Source: a virus (Duplodnaviria; Heunggongvirae; Uroviricota; Caudoviricetes). From it: a stretch of 64,000 bases of DNA. Under the pieces are notes generated by a model. That model ran no database searches. It worked only from the letters and a program-made list of their open reading frames with translations, and was not told where the DNA came from. A program made the position numbers and the translations under genes. Of the stretch, positions 23,227 to 60,006 are shown one piece after another; positions within the stretch are counted from its first letter, which is position 1; each line of letters begins with the position of its first letter. The stretch lies in the IMG/VR virus record IMGVR_UViG_3300034157_000063. The stretch is one strand, 5' to 3'.

Positions 23227-23378
23227 ATTTTTCAACATCCTCTACACGGCTCTATTTACTGGCATTCTCAATTACCAGTAAATAGAAAGTGTTACTAAAT
23301 GCACATTTTAAAATAATTTTTGTTGACTTCTATATAAGTTGTGGCATTATGTCATCAAATTTTAGAGGATGTCTTAAT

Positions 23379-25031
23379 ATGAAACTGTTTAATGATTTAG
23401 GTATAAAATGGAAGATACAAATTGCATTTCTTGCTGTATCTTTGATTATCATGTCTGCTTTTAGCTATTTTTATTATTCATATGCCGTAAAAAGTGAATT
23501 AGGCAATATGGATAATAAACTAGAGTTTGCTACTAAATATTTTAATGAAATCATTAACGAACCATTTATTGATAGTGTTATTAATCATAATGATATAGAT
23601 GTTAATTTATCTCATCAAAAATCTATGCAATTAACGAAATTTGTTACTGAGTTAGAAATACCTTACTTTTATGCTATATTTATTGATAAAGATGGCAAAT
23701 CAAAATACATCACCTCTAATTTAACGGACAAAGAAATTAGTGATGAGTCTATACATTATACGGCAACACCTTATGATGAACCTGAAACAGAAAAGTTTAT
23801 CAGACAAGTATTAAACACAAACATTCAAGCCACCGAAGAATATAGTTCAAAAACAGGTGATTTTAGAACATTATATGTTCCTAAAAAAACATTGGCTGGT
23901 AACCGATATGTGGTAGCTGCAGATATTAATCTATCTGATGTTCAAGGTGTTAAAGAACGTATTATTATGACCGTAGCTATCATTTTTGCTATTGCTATTA
24001 TATTCATTAACATTGTAGCTTATTTCCTTGGTAGATTAATTACCGCTCCTATCCTTGAAATGGTAAAAGTTTTTGAACAGCTAGGTTCTGGTAATGCTGA
24101 TTTAACTTATAAGATACCTGTGAAATTTAATGATGAAAGCGGTCAAATGGCTCGTAATTTCAATTTGTTCATCGCAACACTTAGAGATATGGTTGATTCG
24201 ATTAAAACGAACACGCATGAGCTTACAACAGGTCTTGTTGACATTAATGGATTGATGAATAAATTGTTGGTAGATTCCCAAGGACAATCAGACAGAGCCA
24301 CGGCTTCTGCAGCAACAATAGAAGAGTTAACTACAAGTATGGGTAGTATTTCATTCAGCACTGACACTACGACTAAATCCGTAGAGAACGTAAATGAATT
24401 GACAAGTGAAAGTTCAAAGTCAGTTAAGTTGTTGAGTTCAGAAGTAGCAGACATCACTACATCAGCTCAGGATCTTTCAGGATTGATCCATAATTTGGAA
24501 GTTAAATCCCTTGATATTTCAAAAATTGTTACTGTTATTCATGGCATTGCTGATCAAACAAACTTATTGGCTCTCAATGCTTCAATTGAAGCTGCACGAG
24601 CAGGTGAACATGGAAGAGGTTTTGCGGTAGTGGCAGAAGAAGTTCGTAACTTGGCTGGTAAAACAGCAGAAGCTACGTTAAATATATCTAAAACTATTAA
24701 AGATATTAGCAATCAGATTGTGAGTGCTACAAAGAAAATGGACGAAACTAACGACAAAGTTGAAAATGGCGTTAAGCTTGCTGGTAATGTGTTAGTTCAG
24801 ATCAGTTCAATTCAAACGGATATGAAGGCAGTCTTTGATAATGTTCAAGTGATCAACTTAGCGACCAAAGAACAGTCTATTGCTACCCAAGACATGGCTC
24901 GATCTGCAGAGGAAGGCAGTAATAGTTCTATTCGTAGTCAAAAAATTGTTGAGCAAACAGAAGAAACAGTTTCAAAACTTCAAGATAAAGCTAACAAGCT
25001 TAATGAATTGGTATCTCAGTTTAATACTTGA
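23379..25031 (+). CDS. Methyl-accepting chemotaxis protein
   Basis: Two TM segments flanking a periplasmic sensor, HAMP domain, signalling-tip motif [37 protein letters not shown]; start revised to MKLFND after GAGGA. Confidence 0.95.
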
Positions 25032-58992: not shown

Positions 58993-59081
58993 AAATTTAA
59001 AGAAATATCTTTTGTTTATTGACATAATAAGCTTTTTGATGTTATTATGTTATAGACAACTTTTATAAATAGGAGGAAGCT

Positions 59082-59980
59082 ATGTCACAGCTAAACGCAA
59101 TCTAATTATCGAAACATACAAAGACCATTCCAGATTATATGAATTGGACTTTCATATAAATTCATCTGTCAAAAGTCCTGACGATACAACTCTGTTTACC
59201 ACATCTGGTATGCAACAATTTAAACCCTTATATTCTAATCTAGAATACACCAACACATTTACCAACATCCAGCAATGTCTAAGAATTAATGATCTAGACG
59301 AAATAGGCGATGGCACACACTTTTTAAAATTTGAAATGATAGGTTTATTTTCATTTAGACAATGGACACTTAAACAAGCTATTGATTTCATGTATTCCTT
59401 TGTTAACAAGCTGGGTATTATTCCAGACTATGTAACTATTCACCCTGATAAATATGAAGACTGGAAAGACCTTTATTCTGAATATGGCGTTGAAATACGT
59501 TTAGATCCTGAATGTGTCTGGTCAGATGGTAGTATTGGTGGATATTGCACAGAGTTTTACAAGAACGATGTTGAGATAGGGAATATTGTGAATACAATGG
59601 ATACTTGCATAGATGTGGGTTTTGGACTTGAAAGACTGCTTGAAGTGACTGGAAGCTTAAGACCGAAAAGTAAGCTTCAAATCCTTGAAGAAACTGCTTT
59701 ATTATTGATAGACGATGGTGTATTACTTGGTCACAATAAGAAAGAATACATTTTGAAAAAACTAATCACTGAATCTATTTTTCATGGTAGTCAAATAAGT
59801 AATGAATTTTTTGATCGAATTCGTTTCAATCAAGAAAAAGCTTATTCTACTTATATGAGGAAAAGAAACCATAAACGCTTTAAAGATAAAGATTCCATTT
59901 TCTGGATGGATACCTATGGTTTTAATATTAGTCGAATGGATGAATATGTATCAGTGTTTGGAAAAAAAGAAGACTCGTAA
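59082..59980 (+). CDS. Truncated alanyl-tRNA synthetase-like protein (aminoacylation core only); true start probably ATG 59082, joined by a -1 frameshift or indel
   Basis: DTTLFTTSGMQQFK, QCLRINDLDEIG..THF..FEMIGLFSF and IDVGFGLERL match AlaRS motifs. No editing or C-Ala domain. AGGAGG-ATG at 59071/59082 is out of frame with the body ORF (track: 59144..59980). Confidence 0.8.
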
Positions 59981-60006
59981 GAGTCTTTTTTTATTTTAAA
60001 CTTTTC

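Follow-up and report, generated by a model that had tools for sequence, protein, structure and literature searches.

Organization of the locus

Near the 3' end of the window, as we call the whole 64,000-nucleotide stretch analysed here, an AGGAGG at 59071 precedes an ATG at 59082, from which direct reading of the sequence gives a short leader, MSQLNAI*, spanning 59082-59105. From 59069 onwards, the -1 frame stays open up to a stop codon at 59978-59980 and encodes a small protein related to alanyl-tRNA synthetase (AlaRS). A preliminary description of this DNA had listed the leader with its Shine-Dalgarno (SD) sequence, the open -1 frame, three GCT alanine codons and an SGM motif, all of which are present in the sequence, and had proposed that the synthetase is entered by a -1 frameshift at the alanine codon of the leader. 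The features of the locus are the following.

59019-59048, + strand: sigma-70-like promoter, TTGACA-18-TATTAT with extended -10 TG (11/12, the top site of the region; a consensus match only)
59071-59076, + strand: leader Shine-Dalgarno sequence AGGAGG (its GGAGG is invariant across 8 aligned loci)
59082-59105, + strand: leader ORF MSQLNAI*, 7 codons, frame 0 (Rhizobium/Inquilinus counterpart MSPRDA*)
59090-59092, + strand: Ala codon GCT in the -1 frame, which would occupy the E site after the slip (GCN in 27/31 lineages, by protein homology)
59093-59096, + strand: putative slip site A-AAC, where the P-site tRNA-Asn would re-pair on AAA (covariation A-AAC, G-GAC, C-CAA, A-AAA, G-GAA)
59097-59099, + strand: putative sensor codon GCA (Ala), A site (invariant GC followed by any third base)
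59096-59143, + strand: trans-frame N-terminal synthetase helix (predicted; overlooked by gene callers; in-frame homologues begin here)
59096-59980, + strand: mini-AlaRS ORF, -1 frame, 294 codons (predicted product 299 aa including 5 leader residues)
59970-59992, + strand: terminator-like hairpin across the stop codon (stem 59970-59987, called on the - strand; T-run on the + strand)

Given the promoter at 59019-59048 and the hairpin over the stop codon, the mini-AlaRS gene appears to be transcribed by itself, behind a leader of about 27 nt into which an attenuator would not fit. The TTGACA of this promoter is retained in four relatives (L001, L002, L004 and L009). The GC of the sensor codon doubles as part of CGC, the first codon of the -1 frame. 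A generalised pattern of the cassette has a single match in the window and none in 100 shuffles, and in four whole genomes the general pattern matched the mini-AlaRS gene only. The SD spacer (59077-59081 in the window) is also conserved in homologues, where it frequently ends in GCN directly before the start codon.

The window has 31% GC and carries phage-like orphan arrays, tRNAs and a chemoreceptor (23349-25031). Close relatives of the locus, next to the same genes, come from contigs of 0.5-1.86 Mb; three of these contigs (L001, L003 and L004) measure 1.28-1.86 Mb, longer, to our knowledge, than any described phage. Searches of the nearest viral record for Terminase_6N and Gp23 gave no match.

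The mini-AlaRS protein

The window protein matches Pfam PF01411 above its cut-off (E=1.2e-20) and 983 homologues were found. A structure model built from the first -1 codon (59096) onwards reaches a mean pLDDT of 93.5, with its N-terminal helix (residues 2-14) predicted at 96-98, and aligns over 280 residues with residues 4-414 of E. coli AlaRS (3hxz; Z 23.8, rmsd 4.0), the runner-up synthetase family reaching Z 16.4. Since the superposition starts at AlaRS residue 4, which pairs with residue 1 of the model, the segment 5' of the TTG at 59144 belongs to the fold, as had been anticipated for the -1 stretch before this codon. The onset of homology coincides with the shift point. Eight positions that we take to be ATP- and alanine-binding active-site residues (R63, D66, W142, E160, N163, D173, G175 and R180) are invariant (57/57) and are matched to Rhizobium AlaS in the alignment. 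At the positions reading the G3:U70 pair, the Asp is present in the window (40/57) and the Asn position is a His (N in 29/57, H in 13/57). The profile of full-length AlaRS, TIGR00344, gives 73 bits against a cut-off of 457, and the ORF stops after the recognition helices, in agreement with the proposal of an editing-less enzyme. Judged by its model, the window protein is a compact AlaRS, lacking both the editing and the C-Ala domain and predicted to charge tRNA-Ala.

Other reduced AlaRS are known. The mini-AlaRS of Tupanvirus similarly consists of catalytic and tRNA-recognition parts only, without editing or C-Ala domain, but its 461 aa (PMC10036535) far exceed the ~290 aa of the window family, which has deletions within both domains, retains the D, and often also the N, of the G3:U70 positions, and appears to be gated by a frameshift. 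AcmF, an AlaRS-like aminoacyl transferase of ascamycin biosynthesis, shares the truncated AlaRS fold (PMC12945691); however, it carries N219Q and D232E and lacks the ATP-binding residues, whereas the active-site N and D of the window family are invariant in 57/57, and this family, unlike AcmF, has no biosynthetic cluster.

In phages, the mini-AlaRS gene is frequently placed among tRNA genes, tRNA-Ala included, and tRNA-Ala genes, with G3:U70 in most, are close by in 10 of 26 viral cassette loci. Rhizobium and Phyllobacterium carry a full-length alaS as well, so that the "backup" role first suggested for the enzyme is borne out in these two, for which alone it is shown. If the replicon of the window were a cell with this sole AlaRS, the switch would be a housekeeping autoregulation as in prfB rather than a backup.

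Distribution of the cassette and alanine content of its products

The comparison covers 162 related loci, mostly gathered by protein similarity and with duplicates counted. The out-of-frame SD-ATG cassette is found in 99 of them, and most of the remaining loci have a plain ATG where the shift would land. Its hosts are giant contigs, huge phages (some of the cassette phages carrying terminase and capsid genes), LR745206 and about 70 alphaproteobacterial genomes, in which the leader is MSPRDA* or similar; these include R. etli CFN42 p42b, where RefSeq annotates a shorter gene (RHE_RS22135) with a wrong start. As the preliminary description had expected of homologues, the out-of-frame SD-ATG, the slip site and the Ala codon are conserved, and these elements persist, together with the Ala depletion of viral copies, over 24-71% GC. 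In a quick tree, the cassette and in-frame states switch at least 7 times.

A missing A in the window had been named as an alternative to a genuine frameshift; it is excluded by the identical cassette in the independently assembled L001-L005 and L009. More generally, in-frame relatives exist, two of them cassette-derived (L006 and L007), as might be expected of sequencing errors, pseudogenes or transcriptional slippage, but the same layout recurs in ~100 independent assemblies and in cultured genomes, the bodies are intact with invariant active sites, and the runs are just 2-3 bases long. This recurrence and the intact bodies refute assembly error and pseudogenization, and we find this group of explanations as a whole barely credible. 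The two cassette-derived copies (L006:5001 and L007:366) are nested within the cassette clade, and that of L007 has 7 Ala against 0-1 in its relatives.

The base 5' of the P-site codon is always the first base of that codon itself (A-AAC, G-GAC, C-CAA, A-AAA or G-GAA), so that the P-site tRNA would hold at least two pairs after a back-step. This X-X rule applies to 32/32 distinct genuine cassette strings, each with at least 2 of 3 pairs, a tally that is partly circular because some pattern scans preset cassette bases. The unbiased evidence comes from the protein-homology set and from a scan in which SD, ATG and codon 2 alone were fixed: the latter returned 23 short ORFs, 16 of them with GCN at codon 6, and all 16 have an X-X slip site, a -1-frame Ala codon and a long -1 ORF after it. 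The A-site codon can be any GCN, and the hungry codon is therefore not limited to GCA and tRNA-Ala(UGC) as initially suggested. Likewise, the A-AAC-GCN-NNN-stop arrangement first described holds for the GCN, but its slip site is one of an X-XAN family and the leader stop lies 0 to >7 codons downstream across homologues. The -1-frame Ala codon before the slip site occurs with all four third bases, the frame-0 residue being L, R, P or Q. Its sole exception is a GTG-GAC-GCA lineage (L008, L015, L025 and L048), in which the SD is 11 nt from the slip site, within the known stimulatory range. Directly 5' of the cassette of L042 (before 3950) lies a tRNA-Ala-like remnant with most of its anticodon arm gone.

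These comparisons also bear on other ways of reaching the -1 frame. Re-initiation that depends on the leader, or initiation in the -1 frame at a non-AUG codon close to the leader stop (ATT, CTG or TTG), could make use of the CTG that overlaps the leader stop in Rhizobium and of the ATT in the window. However, the codon at this place can be CTG, CTA, TTG, ATA, ATT, AAT or AAC, and the X-X covariation would be unexplained; the absence of a conserved -1 start codon, combined with the mobile leader stop, counts against such initiation, which we regard as very unlikely. As for the two starts considered in the preliminary description, L004 has TTA in place of the TTG at 59144, and the ATT at the leader stop can be replaced by ATA, ATC, GTA or AAA. 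The two conserved Ala codons, in different frames and 7 nt apart, would suit a back-hop, in which peptidyl-tRNA-Ala at GCA returns 7 nt to the -1-frame GCN, giving MSQLNA-KRNL. Nevertheless, a back-hop has no need of X-XAN, which is invariant, would lack its upstream GCN in the GTG-GAC-GCA lineage, and demands charged tRNA-Ala, the opposite of what the Ala purge implies; it seems to us remoter still. A forward hop from AAC to AAT over the Ala codon was rejected, as G-GAC lineages are without the landing codon.

The 278-aa body read from TTG 59144 contains 3 Ala, all GCT (residues 79, 185 and 233), and has SGM in place of the AGM motif; at the window-wide Ala rate of 4.7%, the probability of 3 or fewer Ala in 278 residues is 8e-4. 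Among viral homologues, the Ala share is 0.51% in cassette-type copies versus 1.96% in in-frame ones (ratio 0.26), or 1.4 against 5.5 Ala per copy on average, while the remaining residues differ 0.87-1.26 fold, showing that Ala alone is depleted. Measured against neighbouring genes, observed/expected Ala is 0.10 in cassette copies versus 0.34 in in-frame copies, and no more than one Ala is present in 92 of the top 120 homologues. SGM replaces AGM in 16/24 viral cassette loci versus 2/58 in-frame loci, both of the latter nested in the cassette clade. GCA itself is used at 4/24 in GCA-gated bodies versus 102/214 (p=0.004, uncorrected for kinship); with correction for kinship, only 3 independent pairs with support are left for comparing the cassette with Ala content (p=0.5). 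Ordinary AlaRS, too, is Ala-poor in its front half (5.8-7.8%). The expected conservation of Ala depletion thus holds for the viral copies and only in part for the bacterial ones, which retain 5-21 Ala (observed/expected 0.33) and whose Ala avoidance is weak. Arg depletion was looked for in the ArgRS of G002, which is not Arg-poor. Three mini-AlaRS copies (L055, L073 and L144) have neither the cassette nor a standard start; that of L144 contains 1 Ala only, and copies of this type may be under a different control.

The cassette also precedes two further phage protein families, cultured phages included. The first is a protein of 90-130 aa (71 homologues, 2.1% Ala) often encoded in tRNA arrays; it has cassettes in L191:1174-1481, L190, L192, L194, L208, L211, L212, L226, L243, L246, L253, L257, L283, L284, L318, L323, L325 and RsoM2USA_128 (L332), and in-frame versions in phages ACF1 and XacN1 with 9 and 11 Ala. 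It has no Pfam, NCBIfam, usable PHROG or Atlas match and no profile match to the mini-AlaRS. The second is a free-standing protein of ~105 aa resembling the tRNA-recognition helices of AlaRS (Atlas 0.92, to a cluster in which 16% of the members carry PF01411), with cassettes in L161:2354-2685, L235 and Aeromonas phages 65.2, CC2 and Ahp1 (L335, L336 and L338) and an in-frame copy with 8 Ala in LPKP23. In five records carrying either family, no mini-AlaRS was found by a search without positive control. From its sequence contexts, the cassette appears to be a portable switch. Cassettes with G-GAA and G-GAC in L321 and L322 stand ahead of ORFs of 60-70 aa outside the three families.

A candidate switch and its precedents

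Taken together, our comparisons support, at the sequence level, the switch reading of the preliminary description: we consider it likely that the cassette is a programmed -1 frameshift that senses alanyl-tRNA and whose product restores charging. Ribosomes would initiate at ATG 59082 and, when Ala-tRNA-Ala is ample, decode GCA and terminate at 59105. When it is scarce, they would stall at the unfilled GCA while AAC occupies the P site, the peptidyl-tRNA would move back one base and CGC would then be read, so that the 299-aa mini-AlaRS would be made until charging recovers and the switch turns off. The purge of Ala codons would keep the enzyme translatable during the shortage. Starvation, inhibition of the host AlaRS and an attack on charging are candidate triggers. 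Slippage of a single tRNA while the A site is empty is an established mechanism that requires no stimulator (PMC7026636).

The slip itself would be weak in the window. Re-pairing at A-AAC involves 2 of 3 bases only, and the tRNA-Asn of E. coli reportedly fails to support single slippage (PMC5009743). The X XXY YYZ heptamer is absent (G CTA AAC), the last tRNA alone being able to re-pair, and the SD lies 16-17 nt from the shift site, outside the stimulatory range of 9-14 nt. There is no 3' hairpin in the window (folding z +0.3); by mononucleotide shuffles, such a hairpin falls below z -2 in 10/31 lineages, the window not among them. Around the cassette, the mean folding z is +0.63, with 0/31 below -2, and a conserved RNA structure or tRNA-Ala mimic was rejected, none being conserved among the 31 folded. 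In L010, L019, L042 and L165, we observed a hairpin of 9-11 bp with apparent compensatory changes ~12-45 nt past the P codon, at the mRNA entry site.

Fixed-ratio shifting is the usual kind of -1 frameshifting (PMC5009743), and some G-GAC lineages (L010, L019, L042, L084 and L130) have a hairpin ~12 nt from the P codon, as would suit a constitutive low-level shift that fixes a small amount of protein without sensing Ala. A constitutive shift, however, accounts neither for the constant presence of an Ala codon, of any third base, in the A site, nor for the retention of another Ala codon in the -1 frame, nor for a purge restricted to Ala, and better slippery sites are available yet rarely used. 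We therefore think it unlikely, and favour a frameshift that depends on Ala-tRNA.

An additional input is suggested by the weak re-pairing, the lack of a known stimulator in the window and the conservation of the -1-frame Ala codon, with which uncharged tRNA-Ala could pair in the E site, locking the weak slip. Cognate E-site tRNA drives reverse movement of tRNAs. An input from the E site would make the switch respond to uncharged tRNA, not to tRNA loss, which is the situation where a synthetase helps. On this basis, we tentatively propose, as a possibility short of even odds, that the cassette works as a portable sensor of uncharged tRNA-Ala with two inputs (A site and E site), which switches on at least three phage and soil-bacterial counter-measures against a widespread attack on alanine charging. 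Were this so, the ribosome would take over the job of the T-box riboswitch. Ascamycin is a natural Ala-adenylate mimic (PMC12945691), although nothing in the present data ties it to the switch.

The closest precedent is prfB (release factor 2; PMC5009743), where a short 5' ORF and a slow A site likewise lead to a P-site slip and the trans-frame product provides the missing A-site ligand, closing a feedback. The cassette differs from it in shifting -1 instead of +1 and at a sense Ala codon instead of UGA, in having no SD 3 nt from the site, and in being reused on three unrelated gene families. The "hungry" one-tRNA -1 slippage of dnaX and HIV-1 gag-pol (PMC7026636) is also a P-site slip while the A site awaits a limiting aminoacyl-tRNA; there, however, it is an alternative route at a tandem heptamer, whereas the cassette has no heptamer and slippage is apparently the only route to the protein. 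Compared with canonical tandem -1 frameshifting, the cassette of the window has no heptamer, 3' structure or SD at 9-14 nt, with stimulators in some other lineages. T-box riboswitches and leader-peptide attenuators regulate a synthetase gene according to how far the cognate tRNA is charged. The cassette resembles them in this charging-sensing control, but without RNA structure, within a 5' UTR of ~27 nt, and with the reading frame as readout rather than termination or SD masking.

Hungry-codon frameshifting could yield starvation-specific proteins, of which "no examples are known" (Atkins et al., 2016; PMC5009743). Our literature search, with most subscription journals outside its scope, found no description of an Ala-sensing frameshift switch, and the word "alanyl" is absent from the main text of the GeneTack survey. 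What appears new, judging from these comparisons, is the gating of two more phage families by the cassette and a conserved second Ala codon hinting at the sensing of uncharged tRNA-Ala. The cassette, 18 bases in size, is thus a conserved candidate for a starvation-specific frameshift product, and its presence in cultured strains and phages makes it directly testable. In addition, it flags two uncharacterised phage families as putative responses to alanyl-tRNA shortage, and its sharing by these families and the mini-AlaRS may point to an unknown defence or antibiotic aimed at alanine charging.
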